Source: an uncultured cyanobacterium (GTDB lineage Bacteria; Cyanobacteriota; Cyanobacteriia; Phormidesmidales; Phormidesmidaceae). Taken from it: a stretch of 64,000 bases of DNA. The position numbers were made by a program, and so were the translations under genes. The notes beneath the pieces were generated by a model. The model did not search any database and had not been told where the DNA came from. It was given only the letters and a program-made list of their open reading frames with translations. Below are positions 17,535 to 50,119 of the stretch, in pieces. The stretch is from contig CAWBZI010000002.1 in the NCBI GenBank assembly GCA_963793265.1, forward strand, positions 809,743 through 873,742, written 5' to 3'. Positions within the stretch are counted from its first letter, which is position 1. Each line of letters begins with the position of its first letter.

Positions 17535-17705
17535 CTAGCATCGATTTAGCTGCAAAAGTTCGGGCACCATCACTCTTAACTTTTGTGCCAGTAATTCTAA
17601 CGTTTCAGCCTCAGTTGCTAAGCCAGGAACATCATCACTCGTCGCCACCCACACTTCAGCCTCATCATCCCAAAAAGCATCAATCTTGCAGGTTGTCTGA
17701 CTCAT
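17535..17705 (-). CDS. DUF1902 / HicB-like small protein
   Basis: Reads MSQTTCKIDAFWDDEAEVWVATSDDVPGLATEAETLELL...MVPELL, with a GAGGGAG RBS upstream. Confidence 0.8.
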   Translation of the reverse strand: MSQTTCKIDAFWDDEAEVWVATSDDVPGLATEAETLELLAQKLRVMVPELLQLNRC

Positions 17706-17778
17706 ACTGACATCTCCCTCATTCTTTGAGCCTACCTGAATAGTTCTCGCAATTGCCAAGGTTTCCTGTCAAAAGATG

Positions 17779-17806
17779 TTGACACCCGTAAAAATACTGA
17801 TACGCT
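17779..17806 (+). promoter_or_regulatory. Sigma70-type promoter of cassette A
   Basis: TTGACA-N16-TACGCT; the TACTGATACGCT core is shared with cassette B. An 8-bp inverted repeat CCGTAAAA/TTTTACGG flanks the -10. Confidence 0.6.
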
Positions 17807-17861
17807 AGTTTTACGGCTGTTGCCCTGTCTTAAACCCACTCGGCAATCGCTCTAACCGCTC

Positions 17862-18006
17862 AAAAATTTAGCAAGCCGCCCGTGTTAACTGCTACGAACA
17901 GCCAACACAGGCTCGCCCCTTAACTGCTCTCGGCAGTCAAGAGGTTATGGAATATGATATTCCATAGCCGCCCTGACTCATGACAAGTTGGGGCGGCTAA
18001 ATTTTT
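17862..18006 (+). ncRNA. Structured leader / putative sense-antisense attenuator element, copy A
   Basis: Four hairpins framed by AAAAATTTAGC...GCTAAATTTTT. Same architecture, with compensatory changes, as 49909-50046. Confidence 0.6.
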
Positions 18007-18036
18007 GCGCTTTCTTCAAACTCATCTCGGAGAAAC

Positions 18037-18387
18037 GTGAAAATGACCATTCGCCTCATGAGACTGCCTGGCCTCGCGCTCAGGTTGCAAACCCATTCGA
18101 CTACTTTTCCTGGATCCCTAACCTCAGACGCTATAGATCAAGACTTCCTGAATCCTTTAAGTGGGCCTACTCGTAAGCAAAATAAGGGCGATCGCACCTG
18201 CCAAAAAGAAGAACTGCGCCACATTCTACTCGGCTCGCCCGGCGCAATTCAGCAGGCCATCCATCAGCTACACGTATTGAACTACGCAGAAACAGTACTG
18301 TGGAGCCCGACTACGGCGGTGGACGATCGCATCATCATCACGCCAGAGCAGGGAGAAGCCATGAGCTTATTGAGGCGATCGGTATAG
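18037..18387 (+). CDS. Uncharacterised small protein, paralog of 49550-49861
   Basis: C-terminal 56 aa (RHILLGSP...IHQLHVLNYAE..LWS...GEAMSLLR) share 29/56 identities with the paralog. Confidence 0.75.
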   Translation: MKMTIRLMRLPGLALRLQTHSTTFPGSLTSDAIDQDFLNPLSGPTRKQNKGDRTCQKEELRHILLGSPGAIQQAIHQLHVLNYAETVLWSPTTAVDDRIIITPEQGEAMSLLRRSV

Positions 18388-29992: not shown

Positions 29993-31336
29993 ATGCTCGC
30001 CCTCAACACTCTACTCGCCGATACGCTATCTATACTGATTGGCGCAGGTAGCCTTGCTTTTTATATTGCTGCCTTCTTTTATCCCGAAGTGCGCCGCCAG
30101 TCGGATACGTGGTGGAGCGGAATCGGTGTGTTTTATGCCCTCGTTCTGTGGTTTAGCGCTGGGCAAATGACTGCTGCAATTTTGTTAGCGCAAATTGCCG
30201 CTGTGGCCCTGGTTTTTGGCTTAGGCTGGCAGGTACTCATCGTCCGCCGCCAAAAGACGCCGGTTTATCAGCAGACGCCGGTTGTCGTAACGCCTGAAGT
30301 GGTGGGCAATTGGACTAAAAACAAGCTCAATCAGCTTAGGATTGCGCCCGCCGAACCCGTGCCGCTTCAGCTAGAAAAACGCAGCCTGAGCGAATTTTCG
30401 ACAGAAGGGCTAGGGGTACGCTCCGACCCACGCCGCCGTCCGGTGTACGACTATGAATTTGTCGAAGACGGCATTGCTGATGAGGTCAGCAAACTAGAGG
30501 CAGCGCCCGATCCTCAGCTTGCGCTGGATTTGGCTTTGGAAAGTGAAAGTGAAGTAGACTACGCTGCGCCACCTTCGGCTGAAGCGGAAGTAATTTCGGT
30601 TGAGGTGCCAGAGCCAGTCGAAGTGCCAGAGCCAGTTGAAGTGCCAAAGCCAGTTGAAGTGCCAAAGCCAGTTGAAGTGCCCAAATCAGTTGCAGAGTTA
30701 GAGCTGGTAGAGGTTCCTGAAGCAGAGGAGGCGATCGCCCTCGATGAATCTACCGCTGAACCCACTGCTGAAGTCAACCAATCACCAGAAAGTGACGAGC
30801 CAAAAGAACCTGAGTCAGCAGACCTAGAGCTAGCTGATATAGAGCAGACTGCGGAAGTCGCAGCAGATGAAATCGGTGAAGTTGAGGCCGTTATTGAAAG
30901 CTTAAATGAAGGTAGTACTGAAGCAGTCAATACCGATAGCAGCGATGAGGCAGACGATTGGGACGACGATATTTTTGAAGAAAGCCCAAAGGCTACAGTC
31001 ACTTCTACAGTCACTCAAGCCACTGACACTCAAGCCACTGAGAATCGAGACATCGAAGATCAGGGCATCGAAGATCGGGGCATCGAAGACAGAGACGATC
31101 CTAAACCCCTTCTACAGCCAAAGAAAAAACCTGGCCCGCTCGAAATACCCGTTATCTTAGTCGGCTGGATCAAAGACGTTATAACATCCTTTACAAAGCC
31201 CAAACCCTCAAAGCCCGTCATTGATATTCCGCGACGAGAGCCCTCTATTCAGCCTAATAAAGGATCTCAACCGCCAGAAACCAGACATCCAGAGCCCGAT
31301 ACTGACAACTGGGAAGAAAGCAACTGGGATGATTAG
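29993..31336 (+). CDS. Ycf66-like N-terminal membrane domain with long acidic low-complexity tail
   Basis: AFFYPEVRRQSDTWWSGIGVFYALVLW...LGWQ...RR followed by an E/P-rich tail. Confidence 0.75.
   Translation: MLALNTLLADTLSILIGAGSLAFYIAAFFYPEVRRQSDTWWSGIGVFYALVLWFSAGQMTAAILLAQIAAVALVFGLGWQVLIVRRQKTPVYQQTPVVVTPEVVGNWTKNKLNQLRIAPAEPVPLQLEKRSLSEFSTEGLGVRSDPRRRPVYDYEFVEDGIADEVSKLEAAPDPQLALDLALESESEVDYAAPPSAEAEVISVEVPEPVEVPEPVEVPKPVEVPKPVEVPKSVAELELVEVPEAEEAIALDESTAEPTAEVNQSPESDEPKEPESADLELADIEQTAEVAADEIGEVEAVIESLNEGSTEAVNTDSSDEADDWDDDIFEESPKATVTSTVTQATDTQATENRDIEDQGIEDRGIEDRDDPKPLLQPKKKPGPLEIPVILVGWIKDVITSFTKPKPSKPVIDIPRREPSIQPNKGSQPPETRHPEPDTDNWEESNWDD
30599..30688 (+). repeat. 18-bp tandem repeat x5 encoding VEVP(E/K)P
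   Basis: Consecutive GTYGARGTGCCARAGCCA-like units. Confidence 0.85.
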
Positions 31337-45031: not shown

Positions 45032-45931
45032 ATGTCTGAGACTGACCTGAGTTTATCGGTGAGGCAACCTGAGGCAGAGGTAAGCGTGCTGGATCGCAGT
45101 GCACTGCCTACAATGTTTGATTTGCCGAGCGAGTATCCTGAGGAACCGGGTTTGCCAGATGAGTTTCATGATATTCAGCCGCAGCTCCTAAGCCGCACAC
45201 TAAGGTTGACTGACTACAGCCGCCAGAACTACTTTACGGCTTCTGATCTCAACATCTATTACGACGTTGAGCATCCGCAGTGGCACAAGCGGTCGGATTG
45301 GTTTTTGGCGGTGGGGGTGCCTCGGATGTATGAGGGGCATATGTTGCGTAGCAGCTATGTTACATGGCAGGAGGAGGCTGCGCCCTATGTGGTGGTGGAG
45401 TTTTTGTCGGCAGGGACAACTCGTGATGATTTGGGGCGCTTTTATGAGCCTGGCGGCTTGAAAAAAGCTGACTTGGGCAGGGACAAGCCGCCGGGGAAGC
45501 TGACGGTGTATGAACAGTATTTACGGGTGCCGCACTATATTGTGTATAGCCATCACAGCCAGCGGCTGCGGTATTTTCGGCTGGTGGACGGTTGCTATGA
45601 GGAGCAGAGGCTAGAGACAGGCAACTGTCGAATTTGGCTGGCAGATTTGAAGATTGGGCTGGGGCTGTGGGAAGGCGAGTTTGAAGAGGCTTATGGGCAT
45701 TGGCTGCGGTGGTGCGATCGGGAAGGTGAATGGTATTTGACGGATACTGAGCGGGCGCAGCGGGCTGAGGAGCAGGAGAGGCTGGCTAAGGAACAGGAAA
45801 GGCTGGCTAAGGAACAGGCGCAGGTTCAGCTTTTGGCGGCGGCTCAAAATCTGTTGGCGACTGGGATGGATTTGGCGGCAGTGGTGGAACTGCTGGGGTT
45901 GTCGGCGGAGCAGCGGCAGCAGTTGGAGTAG
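45032..45931 (+). CDS. Uma2-family putative endonuclease with EQERLAK repeat tail
   Basis: LPTMFDLPSE, DLNIYY, VVVEFLS, WLRW; 21-bp repeats near 45770-45830. Confidence 0.88.
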   Translation: MSETDLSLSVRQPEAEVSVLDRSALPTMFDLPSEYPEEPGLPDEFHDIQPQLLSRTLRLTDYSRQNYFTASDLNIYYDVEHPQWHKRSDWFLAVGVPRMYEGHMLRSSYVTWQEEAAPYVVVEFLSAGTTRDDLGRFYEPGGLKKADLGRDKPPGKLTVYEQYLRVPHYIVYSHHSQRLRYFRLVDGCYEEQRLETGNCRIWLADLKIGLGLWEGEFEEAYGHWLRWCDREGEWYLTDTERAQRAEEQERLAKEQERLAKEQAQVQLLAAAQNLLATGMDLAAVVELLGLSAEQRQQLE

Positions 45932-46004
45932 GGGGGATGAGTAGCGGGTGCTGGAGGGCGATCGCACGGCTCCAAAGTACGATCTCGCTTCGTCGTCTTT
46001 GTGC

Positions 46005-47553
46005 TTACTTTTGTGCCAACCAGCTCTCTAAGTCGTCAATAGATGAAAAGTTGAGCAGGGCGATCGCTAAAGACTCAATCTTCTCCGGGCTAAGTGCCTC
46101 AACAGCGCCACTCAGGGGCTCTGGCAACGTGCCAAATTTTCCGACTAGCAAGCGCTGAAGGAGTACTCTTCCGCCTTCTTTCAGGCCACGCTCAAATCCA
46201 ATTCGCTCAACGCTAGTTATATAGGGCACTCTTCGCGTCTCCTCGTAAGTTTTTAGCTCTGTCCAAAATGAACGGTCTAGACCTTTTGGCAACACCATTA
46301 TCCAGTCTATAAACCGGAAAAGGTTTACGATGTCTGCTCTATTATATCCTTGCTCGTAAAGCCGCCGAATCAGCCTGAGCTTCCATTCTTTGCGGCTTTG
46401 CTTGTCTTTTTTGGTTTCTTGGGCTTTGAGATGCGTCATCACCACAACAGCAAACGGGTTGTCGCTGGCTTCTAACGCTGACCAGCGATCACGATAGTCT
46501 AGCAGCTTCACCATGCCGAAGCGGAAGGACAATGATGTGTCAGGGTAGTCGAAACCGTAGTGCTCGGGTCGCCAGCTTGCGTTGGCATCGCACAATATGG
46601 CCAGGCTGGTGGCTGGGCGACGAAAGATGTCGAAGATGCGCAGGTTATATAAGAACATTCGCTCGGGAAATTTTGTTTCGCGAGCGGCTTGAACTTCAAC
46701 GTGGACTAGAAGCCATAGTTCTTTACCTTGTTTGCGCTGCACCTTTACGAGCTGGTCGGCGAAGCGTCTGCCGGTTTCGGTATCGGGTGCAATTTGCTGG
46801 AATTGTAACTACTCAGGCTTAAATCTTTAAGTTGATTATAAGCGCTACGAAGGCAGAGCCGATAAGGTGTTAAGCGTCTTCATCAGTCAGACTTGAGTTG
46901 AGCAAGCGAGCGTCAAAAATCAATATCAGTGAAGCAGAGGTCAGAGCAGTCTACCGCCAAGGCGAGGCCGCGGTTGTCGAGCTAGTGAGCGCACTGGTGG
47001 AGCGGCTAGCAGATGTAGAGGCGCGGTTAGAGAAGCTAGAGAATAACCAGAAGAAGACTAGTCGCAACAGCAGCAAGCCACCGTCAGGCGATGGCTTTGG
47101 CAAACGGACGAAGAGTCTGAGAAAAAAGAGTGAGCGTTCCAGCGGTGGGCAAAAAGGTCATCCGGGCAGCACGCTCGAATGGTGCGAACAGGTCGATGCG
47201 GTGGTCACTCATGAGGTAAACGAATGTTTTGAGTGCGGCACATCACTATCCTCGGTGAGCGCGGTAGAGCACAACCGGCGTCAGGTTCATGAGTTGCCCC
47301 GGTTGCGTTTGCAGGTTATCGAACACCAGGTGGAAGTAAAGTGCTGTCCGGCCTGTGCGGCGGTGAGCCGAGGCGCGTTCCCAGCTGATGTCACCGTTCG
47401 GGTGCAGTATGGCAGTGGCTTGCGAGGGCAATTCGGGGGGTTTGCGCCAGTCGATGAGGTGGCGGTGTGGGGGAAGAAGAAGGATATTGCTTCTTTGAAG
47501 TAGGTGCGGAGGATGAGCTTCCAGGGGCCATCTTGCGGGTCGTAAGCAGCCAT
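46005..47553 (-). pseudogene. Rpn/YhgA-like nuclease with DUF4351-like tail, interrupted by an IS66 fragment
   Basis: The 5' part (47430-47553) and 3' part (46005-46804) are both nearly identical to the intact paralog 48488-49471. Confidence 0.88.
46805..47429 (+). mobile_element. Truncated IS66-family element (ISBst12-like left end and transposase N-terminus)
   Basis: Begins GTAACTACTCAG. ORF from 46898 has SRNSSKPPSGD, GGQKGHPG, CxxCG, RQVHELP and CPAC, and ends abruptly after VQYG. Confidence 0.85.
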
Positions 47554-47674
47554 CGTAGTCCTGGGGAGTGCGGCGGATAAGCAAGTGTACTATTAAACGG
47601 CTATGGCTTCGGGAAGCTTGAGGGCGCAGCGCTATGCTGGGTGACCTGGCAAACTGTGCTGGACAAATGCTTGC

Positions 47675-47893
47675 TCAGCAACTCGTGAGATTCATCTGCG
47701 CGAGAAAAGTGTGTCTATCAATGTGAAGCCGAATGATTTTAGGACGATTGGCTTCTTCAAAATGACATTGCACAGCGTCTAATATCATGGGTCTAAGCTC
47801 ATTCAAGGTATCTGCCTGAGTGAAAATGATTCACCAAGCCCTTGCGGTATAACCTTCTTCAGGATCTATCAACTAAAAATACCACTCACTCAT
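47675..47893 (-). pseudogene. HicB-like antitoxin remnant
   Basis: Frameshifted pieces read DPEEGYTARA / ESxFTQADTLNELRPMILDAVQCHFEEANRPKIIRLHI. Confidence 0.6.
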
Positions 47894-47981
47894 ATTAGTC
47901 ACCTTGATTTAGGCATTTCTTCTACTCTGACCAACCGTCTAAATCATTAAAATTGTAGAACAGGTTTGTCGCGGTTGAGTG

Positions 47982-48055
47982 TCGGCTTTGCTGGTGTTTG
48001 TTTCTTGGGCTTTGAGGGTCATCACCACGACGGCGAAGGGGTTGTCGCTGGCTTC
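47982..48055 (-). pseudogene. Degenerate internal fragment of a third Rpn copy
   Basis: GGGTCATCACCACGACGGCGAAGGGGTTGTCGCTGGCTTC matches the intact Rpn near 48964-49003. Confidence 0.7.
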
Positions 48056-48262
48056 ATAAGCAACCATTGTAGGGCTGGGGAGTACAGTCATGATTCGGAG
48101 TGTACTATTGAAGTAACTTATCCTGCGCTAATTGATTATGAAGGCTAATGGGATAGCAAATCTTGCGAGGGCCTGAACATTTGTTAATTTGCAGACCTTG
48201 CTGCCGTTTAGGATATTTGTGACGACGTGTTTTTGGATTACACCTGTTTTCCATTAAGTAGG

Positions 48263-48472
48263 CTAGTACGTCTGCCCCTTCATTGGAATGAAGAGGGTGT
48301 TTTCGTAGGCTTGGATGACGATGCCTAGCGTGTCTAGCAATGAATAGAGTGGGTGCGCTTCGTTGGTGCCTACTTCGTCTAGCAGATCGTTTAGCCGGAT
48401 GACGGCCTGGTCGTATTCGGTTTCGTTGCGGATAGTGAGGATGGGAGCCGCGTTTGGATATCTAGTGAGCAT
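48263..48472 (-). pseudogene. HigA-like antitoxin N-terminal fragment
   Basis: IRNETEYDQAV.RLN.LLDEVG.NEAHPL.SLLDTLG..I.AYE, with no C-terminal HTH. Confidence 0.65.
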
Positions 48473-48487
48473 CGGTAATCCCCTGAG

Positions 48488-49471
48488 TTATCTAGCGTCT
48501 TTTTGTTGCGCTAGCCAGGTTTCTAAGTCTTCAATCGATGAAAAGTTGAGGAGGGCGATCGCCAACGATTCTATGGCCTCCAGGCTAAGTGCTTCGACTG
48601 CGGTACTCAAATGCTCGGGCAATTCGCCGAACTTTCCAACTAGCTGACGCTGAAGCAGCGATCTACCTTCTGCTTGGCGACCTTCTTGTCGGCCTTCTTG
48701 TCGGCCTTCCTGCAAACCTCGCTCAAATCCGATGCGCTCAACGCTGGTGATGTAGGGCACTTTTCGCGTCTCCTCGTAAGTTTTTAGCTCTGTCCAAAAT
48801 GAACGCTCTAGATGCTTGGGTAGCACCATTACCCAGTCTATGAACCGGAATAGGTTTACGATGTCTGCCCGATTATATCCCTTTTCGTAGAGTCGCCGAA
48901 TGAGCGTGAGCTTCCATTCTTTGCGGCTTTGCTTGTCTTGTTTGGTTTCCTGGGCTTTGAGGTGGGTCATCACCACGACGGCGAAGGGGTTGTCGCTGGC
49001 TTCTAGTGCTGACCAGCGATTTTTGTAATCTAGCAGCTTCACCATACCGAAGCGAAAGGACAGTGACGTGTCAGGATAGTCGAAGCCATAGTGCTCGGGT
49101 CGCCAGCTTGCGTTGGTGTCGCACAGTATGGCCAGGCTTGTAGCTGGACGGCGGAAGATGTCGAAGATGCGCAGGTTGTATAGAAACATTCGCTCGGGAA
49201 ATTTTGTTTCGCGAGCGGCTTGAACTTCGACGTGGACTAGAAGCCATAGTTCTTTGCCTTGTTTGCGCTGCACCTTTACGAGCTGGTCGGCGAAGCGTCT
49301 GCCGGTTTCGGTGTCGGGTGCGATTTGTTGAAATTCTTTGTCTAGAAATTCGGGGGGTTTGCGCCAGTCGATGAGGTTGGCGGTGTGGGGGAAGAAGAAG
49401 GATATTGCTTCTTTGAAGTAGGTGCGGAGGATGAGCTTCCAGGGGCCATCTTGCGGGTCGTAAGCAACCAT
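48488..49471 (-). CDS. Rpn/YhgA-like PD-(D/E)XK nuclease with DUF4351-like C-terminus
   Basis: DGPWK, FLDKEFQQI, ADQLVKV, HVEVQ, FPERMF, SDNPFA, PYITSVERIG, EGRQ repeats and LLNFSSIEDLETWL. Confidence 0.9.
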   Translation of the reverse strand: MVAYDPQDGPWKLILRTYFKEAISFFFPHTANLIDWRKPPEFLDKEFQQIAPDTETGRRFADQLVKVQRKQGKELWLLVHVEVQAARETKFPERMFLYNLRIFDIFRRPATSLAILCDTNASWRPEHYGFDYPDTSLSFRFGMVKLLDYKNRWSALEASDNPFAVVVMTHLKAQETKQDKQSRKEWKLTLIRRLYEKGYNRADIVNLFRFIDWVMVLPKHLERSFWTELKTYEETRKVPYITSVERIGFERGLQEGRQEGRQEGRQAEGRSLLQRQLVGKFGELPEHLSTAVEALSLEAIESLAIALLNFSSIEDLETWLAQQKDAR

Positions 49472-49549
49472 TGTAGTCCTGGGGATTGCGGCATAATTCA
49501 AGCTGTACTAGTTAAACGGATATGGCTCTGGGAAGCGTTGGAGGCGGCG

Positions 49550-49861
49550 CTATACCTGTTTGCGTAGCAGGCTGATGACTTCTCCTGGTGTGGGAGGGAG
49601 CACTAGCGGGTCAGCGAGGGTGATTGCTCGGCTCCAAAGCAAGGTATCGGCGTAGCGTAGGGTGTGTAGCAGGTGGATGGTTTGGCGGACGGCTTCGGGG
49701 TGGCCTAGCAGGATGTGGCGGACGTACAGTTTGCCGTGGTCGGGGGCTGACGGTTCTATTTGAAAGGGGTCGGGCGCTGTGGGCGGGGTTGTGTGGCGAA
49801 ATGAAAGGCGATCGCGAGACGGGGCAGAGAGCAGATTGGCAGGCGTGAGGGTCGTTTTCAT
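49550..49861 (-). CDS. Uncharacterised small protein, paralog of 18037-18387
   Basis: ATG 49861 gives 103 aa containing RHILLGHPEAVRQTIHLLHTLRYADTLLWS...GEVISLLRK. Confidence 0.75.
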   Translation of the reverse strand: MKTTLTPANLLSAPSRDRLSFRHTTPPTAPDPFQIEPSAPDHGKLYVRHILLGHPEAVRQTIHLLHTLRYADTLLWSRAITLADPLVLPPTPGEVISLLRKQV

Positions 49862-49908
49862 GGCTTCTTCTGAGGGGTTCGGGGTGTCCGTGTAGCGAGG
49901 AAGCCCAG

Positions 49909-50046
49909 AAAAAATTAGCCACCCCAACTTGCCAAGAGTTAGGGTGGCTATGCAATGATATGCATAACCTCCTATCTGCCTGTAACAGACTGGGGGCGAG
50001 TTGTCGGTATTGGCTGCGAACCAATGCCGACAACGGCTAATTTTTT
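49909..50046 (-). ncRNA. Structured leader / putative sense-antisense attenuator element, copy B
   Basis: Four hairpins framed by AAAAAATTAGCC...GGCTAATTTTTT, homologous to 17862-18006. Confidence 0.6.
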
Positions 50047-50089
50047 CGAGGCGGGTTGGCAACTACGCCTGTGCGTAGCCCTAAGCATC

Positions 50090-50119
50090 AGCGTATCAGT
50101 ACTCTTTTGATTGTGTCAA
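50090..50119 (-). promoter_or_regulatory. Sigma70-type promoter of cassette B
   Basis: Minus-strand TTGACA-N18-TACGCT, sharing TACTGATACGCT with cassette A. Confidence 0.6.

Follow-up and report, generated by a model that had tools for sequence, protein, structure and literature searches.

A recurrent leader cassette in cyanobacterial chromosomes, most likely a switch in which an opposite-strand small RNA keeps a short gene off

Most known cases of attenuation by antisense RNA come from single plasmid replicons, and type I toxin-antitoxin systems such as Hok/Sok and Ldr/Rdl occur in several chromosomal copies. In the plasmid pairs RNAI/repC of pT181 and RNAIII/repR of pIP501, as described in PMC5703833, a counter-transcript (87 nt for pT181 RNAI) is made over the leader, and before it binds, a pre-emptor pairing prevents a terminator-like stem from forming near the start codon. 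In the RNAI/rep pair of pSK41, an RNA of about 83 nt, made up of two stem-loops and a short spacer, binds about 100 nt upstream and induces a stem that hides the ribosome site (PMC5703833). The Gram-negative bacterium Shigella uses the cis-antisense RNA RnaG to bring about premature termination of icsA (PMC2879508). In the immI region of phage P1 (C4 RNA/icd/ant), a leader RNA acts as repressor of small genes, including one that inhibits division, according to PMC8198154. A type I-like pair with a 36-aa membrane peptide is described for Synechocystis (bioRxiv 10.64898/2025.12.20.695498); the main text of T1TAdb contains 0 occurrences of the word 'cyanobacteri'. NsrR1/all1871 of Nostoc PCC 7120 was considered as a relative and rejected, being a trans-acting sRNA that pairs imperfectly at the ribosome site, with different 5' UTR sequences (PMC7281752).

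The locus compared with these systems here, cassette A (17779-18387, + strand), lies within a 64,000-nt stretch of cyanobacterial DNA, referred to as the window, and comprises the following features.

17779-17784 and 17801-17806, + strand: sense sigma70-type promoter (TTGACA, 16-nt spacer, TG-n-TACGCT), found by motif check
17862-17872, + strand: anchor segment a, whose partner is 17996-18006 (terminator base and U-run)
17878-17912, - strand: hairpin 1, fitted to the antisense strand, with a loop unique to each copy
17916-17944, - strand: hairpin 2, fitted to the antisense strand, with a loop unique to each copy
17946-17966: palindrome, found by motif check
17943-17969, + strand: hairpin 3, putative second antiterminator (arm b 17943-17947, arm c 17965-17969)
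17954-17986, - strand: predicted antisense promoter (-10 TATCAT 17959-17954, -35 TTGTCA 17986-17981)
17858-17947, - strand: predicted antisense RNA with two stem-loops, about 85-90 nt, with inferred ends
17965-18006, + strand: hairpin 4, intrinsic-terminator-like, 14 pairs (stem 17965-17999, 5-U tract 18002-18006)
18011-18035, + strand: hairpin 5, sequestering a GGAG ribosome site
18037-18387, + strand: ORF of 116 aa, with a variable disordered N-terminus and a conserved beta-alpha-beta-beta domain of ~60 aa

The cassette would resemble pT181 and pIP501 in its predicted counter-transcript over the leader (80-94 nt across the leaders, close to the 87 nt of pT181 RNAI and the 83 nt of pSK41 RNAI), and its terminator and an upstream pairing exclude each other as in those plasmids, in silico and only in one of its two subfamilies (subfamily 1). 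It differs from them in being chromosomal and cyanobacterial, in its 23 copies per genome, in its small non-Rep protein, in its two competing antiterminator pairings, and in the lack of Rfam or sequence likeness. A replication-initiator target was not found: the ORF belongs to no Pfam or NCBIfam family, and the 23 copies lie on large contigs. The pSK41 mechanism may fit subfamily 2, except that the target here is no replication initiator and that subfamily 1 adds a U-tract terminator. Hok/Sok and Ldr/Rdl share with the cassette the occurrence in several chromosomal copies, a sequestered ribosome site, long-range pairing and an antisense RNA, predicted in our case, inside the mRNA and 5' of the ORF; the protein here, in contrast, is about 80-120 aa long, soluble and a predicted dimer, and no hydrophobic membrane peptide. 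The likeness to P1 C4 is that the leader is reused before different genes, whereas c4 lies in the operon of its targets (PMC8198154) and the RNA predicted here has its own opposite-strand promoter; there is also no phage match for protein or leader. RnaG/icsA is a single locus, unrelated in sequence and target. Having no Rep target, no hydrophobic peptide and no Rfam match, the cassette is a member of none of these groups; we regard it as a variant of pT181/pSK41 or Hok/Sok-type antisense control.

All motifs of cassette A named in the initial annotation were recovered in place by the motif check; hairpin 5 was absent from it. Segment c doubles as the 5' base of terminator hairpin 4, and the sense start site would lie near 17813. 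The sense leader folds with a z score of -6.59 (0/200 shuffles as good) and the antisense strand of 17855-17960 with a z score of -4.72 against shuffles. The sense promoter fails a strict consensus scan, its -10 matching at 3/6 positions, and a TTG-N16-19-TAnnnT arrangement is present in 20/23 leaders of the same genome. On the other strand, the -10 of copy A lies in the hairpin 3 loop. The -35 TTGTCA is indeed located in the hairpin 4 loop, as first described, but 21 nt from the family -10 and with no TG extension; most paralogues have 19 nt, the longer spacer of copy A arising from a small insertion in hairpin 3, and an alternative hexamer at 17962-17957 gives 18 nt. The consensus scan of copy A reported neither an antisense promoter nor an antisense terminator. 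It did report a sense promoter-like site at 17930-17958, because the hexamer core of subfamily 1 is palindromic. Both T-runs of the original description exist, with qualifications: the antisense run lies 11 nt beyond hairpin 1, and the one behind the intrinsic-terminator-like hairpin 4 has only 5 T and begins 2 nt past the stem. The putative antisense promoter and terminator of copy A are non-canonical, the promoter being of the weakest type. A DUF1902 gene at 17535-17759 (- strand) is divergent from cassette A and starts 20 nt from its -35.

The layout had been reported to recur once, which was correct for a second copy (copy B) but understated its frequency. According to an iterated HMM, the genome encodes the C-terminal domain of the ORF in 24 paralogues, split evenly between subfamily 1 (12; the long-loop form, to which copies A and B both belong) and subfamily 2 (12). 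The leader core covariance model gave exactly 23 full-length matches, in agreement with nhmmer (12 + 11), and one subfamily 2 gene has lost its leader. By eye, this single leaderless paralogue (G000:C4:698544-698756, L019) appears fused to the end of a PIN-like ORF belonging to a toxin-antitoxin pair. The features of copy B and of a related remnant are these.

49550-50119, - strand: copy B cassette (promoter 50119-50090, anchor 50047-50035, hairpins 1-4)
49861-49550, - strand: copy B ORF, 103 aa
49929-49934 and 49954-49959, + strand: predicted antisense promoter of copy B (-35 and -10, respectively)
45923-45980, - strand: leaderless remnant like the C-terminal part of the copy B ORF, seen by eye and below the HMM threshold

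Beyond this genome, the protein is present in 37/301 genomes of the phylum, with 742 representatives at 50% identity, and its closest named relatives are from Phormidesmis and Leptolyngbya. The leader was found in 43/151 genomes of the class, spread over nine families, and in 9/101 genomes of a phylum-wide draw (0/15 in family f7); another genome holds up to 37 leader matches, some of them partial. Rfam 15 gave 0 matches in the window at the gathering threshold and only two chance-level matches at 17700-18100 (E 1 and 2.1). The viral collections contained no protein relative and no exact leader pattern. We used three alignments, A4 (35/36 strong subfamily 1 matches, one partial match omitted), A5 (43 hand-picked near-full subfamily 2 matches) and A2 (22/24 paralogues), and an independent set of 59 leaders from other genomes (61 minus 2 duplicates). 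These sequences are related, so the counts given below are of non-independent events and are all inflated by kinship.

Leaders of both subfamilies have the same order of elements: promoter, variable 5' part, anchor a, hairpin 1, a conserved linker (1.3-1.7 bits), hairpin 2, hairpin 3 (arms b and c), hairpin 4 (bases c on the 5' side and d on the 3' side), an anchor-complementary segment, hairpin 5 over the ribosome site, and the start codon. The covariation check on homologous leaders proposed in the initial annotation revealed two-sided changes in 24/30 pairs of the four hairpins, a level reached by 0/500 shuffles, and slid controls fell to 28-43% paired. The annotation's pairing of the anchor with the 3' side of the terminator was likewise borne out by covariation: in subfamily 1, 95.4% of cells are paired, with 27 two-sided changes, and again 0/500 shuffles reach this. 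Anchor pairing is also present in subfamily 2 with a wholly different sequence, and further different versions were seen by eye in genomes G141, G017 and G277. In subfamily 2, the segment that pairs with the anchor shares sequence with the 5' arm of hairpin 5. Subfamily 1 has weak sense U-tracts (4-5 T in 9 nt in 22/35), and most subfamily 2 leaders have none, a run of at least 4 T following hairpin 4 in 16/43. Loops 3-4 are conserved (1.2-1.5 bits), whereas loops 1-2 are not (about 0.5 bits): in the source genome, the 23 hairpin 1 loops are all distinct, as are the 23 hairpin 2 loops. The longest run common to two copies has a median of 8 nt and is at least 20 nt long in 9/253 pairs. Such distinct loops are what insulated RNA-target pairs would be expected to look like. 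Because the loops are private to each copy, every copy probably answers to an RNA of its own.

Signs of a counter-transcript were found in the wobble pairs, which we counted with a strand-neutral stem finder that scores G-T and A-C alike. An A-C mismatch on the sense strand is a G-U pair on the antisense strand. Sense-strand G-T:A-C counts in the 35 leaders of subfamily 1 were 3:78 for hairpin 1 and 2:36 for hairpin 2, as against 38:3 for hairpin 3, 56:9 for hairpin 4, 37:5 for the long-range pairing and 29:13 for hairpin 5. The 43 leaders of subfamily 2 gave 9:82 and 6:55 for hairpins 1 and 2, then 16:6, 38:15, 99:20 and 63:8 for the other elements in the same order. The asymmetry noted originally for copy A alone, with G-U on the sense strand in hairpin 4 and antisense-type wobbles in hairpins 1-2, is thus present in this copy and in its relatives. 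In the independent 59 leaders, the antisense-type bias repeats for hairpin 1 (8:97) and hairpin 2 (2:58), while the sense bias is lost for hairpin 3 (29:44) and weak for hairpin 4 (45:31). Taken over 137 leaders, these counts argue that selection on hairpins 1-2 acts on the antisense strand.

The putative antisense promoter is conserved in its key positions. Anchored on the -7T column, -11A is invariant (35/35 and 43/43), the middle positions vary, and -12 is T in 38/43 of subfamily 2 and C in 24/35 of subfamily 1. The pattern TAnnnT occurs at the hairpin 3 loop of the independent set in 53/59 leaders on the antisense strand and 21/59 on the sense strand; at hairpins 1 and 2 it occurs in 1/59 and 3/59. 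In the independent set and in subfamily 2 the hexamer has a direction; its core is palindromic in subfamily 1. A purine stands 7-8 nt past the hexamer in 35/35 and 43/43 leaders, at the edge of segment b, where the antisense start would be expected. Together, these features lend good support to a cis-antisense RNA over hairpins 1-2 that would shut off the ORF; that this RNA exists, where it ends and that transcription terminates are inferences from the DNA.

We next consider how such an RNA could alter the fold of the leader, using equilibrium, not kinetic, calculations. In subfamily 1, the terminator base c:d with its U-run free had a probability below 0.3 in 32/35 unmasked leaders and above 0.6 in 33/35 when the footprint of the predicted RNA was masked; in copy A it rose from 0.10 to 0.97. 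The mean was 0.69 with a masked alone, 0.55 with b alone and 0.83 with both. Nascent RNA of subfamily 1 showed a modest shift (mean 0.57 to 0.82; a rise of more than 0.1 in 22/35). For nascent copy A, masking b was sufficient for the full effect (0.60 to 0.95), whereas with a masked by itself the value stayed at 0.61. If the RNA began further upstream, covering hairpins 1-2 and leaving b free, the effect in copy A would be the reverse (0.08). The effect of masking b alone suggests that hairpin 3 is the kinetically relevant antiterminator and that the anchor stabilises the read-through fold afterwards. The ribosome site closed upon footprint masking in 16/43 leaders of subfamily 2, opening in 1/43, and closed in 3/35 of subfamily 1. 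Two earlier proposals stand in amended form. For the antisense RNA that blocks an antiterminator, arm b of hairpin 3 competes for the terminator base and is what counts in the nascent RNA of copy A; and attenuation of the ORF agrees with the subfamily 1 folds in silico but extends poorly to subfamily 2, which mostly lacks a U-tract.

Our best explanation, which we hold with reasonable confidence, is that the cassette is a self-contained, portable switch under antisense control, most likely an uncatalogued one in which an opposite-strand small RNA keeps a short gene off. The sigma70-type promoter would give rise to an mRNA with a leader of ~220 nt, and a second promoter within hairpins 3-4 would fire in the opposite direction to make an antisense RNA of ~85 nt carrying hairpins 2 and 1 as stem-loops. 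When this RNA is absent, b:c would form hairpin 3, the anchor would pair with the terminator base, the U-run and the approach to the ribosome-site hairpin, and the gene would be expressible. Binding of the RNA through the variable loops would cover both b and the anchor, allowing hairpin 4 to be completed. In subfamily 1, including copy A, the completed hairpin would act as a terminator; elsewhere in the family, as in subfamily 2, the 3' segment thereby released would join hairpin 5 and hide the ribosome site. Since subfamily 2 mostly has no U-tract, the family-wide output is more likely ribosome-site sequestration, as in pSK41, with termination as an extra layer in subfamily 1; the half of the family without a U-tract probably acts on the ribosome site.

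The antisense RNA could also be real and yet act mainly via transcriptional interference or duplex-triggered mRNA decay, with the alternative folds being secondary. The evidence for the antisense promoter and from hairpins 1-2 fits this equally well, the U-tracts are weak and the ribosome-site effect is partial, and RnaG/icsA, as described in PMC2879508, joins interference with attenuation. We nevertheless consider it unlikely, as it leaves unexplained the covarying anchor pairing with its sense-strand wobbles, a start site placed in phase with segment b, and the copy-specific loops. More improbable is a switch acting only in cis, or actuaton, with no counter-transcript: its main product would be a sense sRNA that stops at hairpin 4, and a ligand, a protein or temperature would determine read-through. 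Actuatons have been described in cyanobacteria (PMC6596454), and the sense terminator at 17965-18006, the conserved linker between hairpins 1 and 2 as a possible binding site and the palindromic hexamer of subfamily 1 would suit such a device; the antisense-strand selection of hairpins 1-2, the directional hexamer of the other leaders and the variability of loops 1-2, which is unlike an aptamer, do not. Least probable of all is a non-autonomous mobile repeat whose hairpins are features of DNA or single-strand copying and whose promoter signals are incidental: the 23 scattered copies adjoin variable genes and the domain is fused to integrase fragments in two database proteins, but identity between copies is only ~62% in the RNA region, purifying selection acts on the ORF, the alignments showed no terminal repeats, and the wobble bias switches strand inside the element, as a DNA cruciform would not need.

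Returning to the antisense-controlled switch, its portability is seen in the genes that follow the leader. Behind the 59 leaders, a set partly chosen through the protein, are 43 genes of the ORF family, eight of family Y (three of them assigned by a short motif), five of family Z and three others, and in three cases a weak HTH_36 gene comes next. Conversely, plasmid copies of the gene, known from 12-13 records that are nearly all from Nostocales, adjoin rep and primase, an integrase or a helix-turn-helix gene, and those inspected have no four-hairpin leader. Because the leader precedes unrelated genes and the gene occurs without the leader, the two appear to be separable modules, with the gene seemingly often under negative control, a pattern that suggests a harmful or switch-like product.

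Family Y proteins are 115-212 aa long and family Z proteins ~72 aa; both are unrelated to the ORF and have no Pfam or PHROG match (G002 and G329 for Y, G313 for Z). The loci are L194:1763-2398, L203:1120-1464 (followed by a weak HTH_36 gene), L225:940-1323, L229 and L233 for family Y, and L214:635-850, L231, L234:905-1117, L238 and L241 for family Z. Neither family has a plasmid match or a member in the source genome. By eye, leaderless chromosomal homologues (L079, L106, L109-L117, L120, L129, L134, L180, L185) have an XRE-type repressor-like neighbour, divergent or just upstream. Nostocales plasmid homologues (L103:1200-1920, L104:3620-4180, L135, L139) carry a single HIP1-flanked hairpin instead of the leader and have a helix-turn-helix or ParG neighbour. 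An origin in Rep control, raised by one plasmid copy upstream of rep, was dropped, that copy being without the four-hairpin leader.

The neighbours of the cassettes are variable and often belong to toxin-antitoxin or Uma2 families. Raw counts over 76 flanking ORFs at 22 loci of the source genome include six Uma2 genes, and HigB, HTH, PIN, Fic, DUF433, DUF5615 and DUF4258 genes were also found. The mix is similar in relatives, together with many housekeeping genes.

Leaving aside one paralogue with an altered C-terminus, pN of the ORF was lower than pS in 55/55 and 66/66 paralogue pairs (0.21 vs 0.75 and 0.29 vs 0.72 in the two sets), indicating purifying selection. The protein is not hydrophobic: the top 19-residue Kyte-Doolittle mean is 0.86 for the whole of copy A and never exceeds 1.18 in the domain of any of the 24 copies. 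Structure modelling gave a disordered N-terminus and a beta-alpha-beta-beta domain, and a homodimer score of 0.65 (best of three controls, 0.00), with contacts agreeing at 98% or more between runs and pLDDT of at least 79; the mark applied was reached by 20/30 solved pairs and 1/23 single chains. The protein is therefore predicted to be a soluble, intertwined homodimer, and a natural tandem fusion of the domain exists (P0121).

Pfam and NCBIfam hold no family for the ORF, and NCBIfam and PHROGs gave only single-member weak matches (E 0.02 or worse). Sequence matches in the PDB were discarded as kelch-like repeat artefacts, and ESM Atlas matches reached at most 0.84, in unnamed cyanobacterial clusters. 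Fold searches with the monomer and with the tandem fusion P0121 returned no significant match; the tandem form gave a best Z of 5.1 (rmsd 3.0, 87 aligned), and comparison with MinE and ferredoxin-like folds gave a best Foldseek E of 0.37 (MinE) and a best Z of 4.3, which makes MinE a weak lead only. P0278 and P0289 carry the domain fused to parts of a truncated integrase (PF00589, PF13495); these fusions are probably deletion products of adjacent genes.

A broader reading, which we offer tentatively as possible rather than probable, is that the cassettes form a large cyanobacterial family resembling type I toxin-antitoxin systems, with a soluble dimeric effector of unrecognised fold and 20-40 mutually insulated copies per genome, each with its own antisense loops, and that the portable switch has, by swapping, come to control three or more unrelated protein families and has taken the place of repressor control. 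Our literature search, which reached few subscription journals, found no description of the element. Part of the motif could have been captured, as sequence flanking a neighbouring gene, in a CMfinder screen that covered 202 genomes and took 931 KEGG groups as anchors (PMC12873609). A chromosomal family spread over nine cyanobacterial families would represent a large class of regulatory RNA that has gone unrecognised. It would provide a natural series in which to follow one switch between control of termination and control of translation, and orthogonal RNA switches ready for use in the engineering of cyanobacteria. Should the protein prove inhibitory, a type I toxin-antitoxin family with a soluble effector would be added.

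Copy B is followed by DUF4351 sequence. On the - strand, 46005-49501 contains two DUF4351 genes, 87% alike over 300 nt, and fragments of a third, along with an IS66-type fragment (46898-47503) and a cassette ORF remnant; this region behind copy B is a decayed tandem duplication. Elsewhere in the window, at 30599-30724, an 18-nt tandem repeat occurs six-fold and encodes a VEVPEP-type linker.
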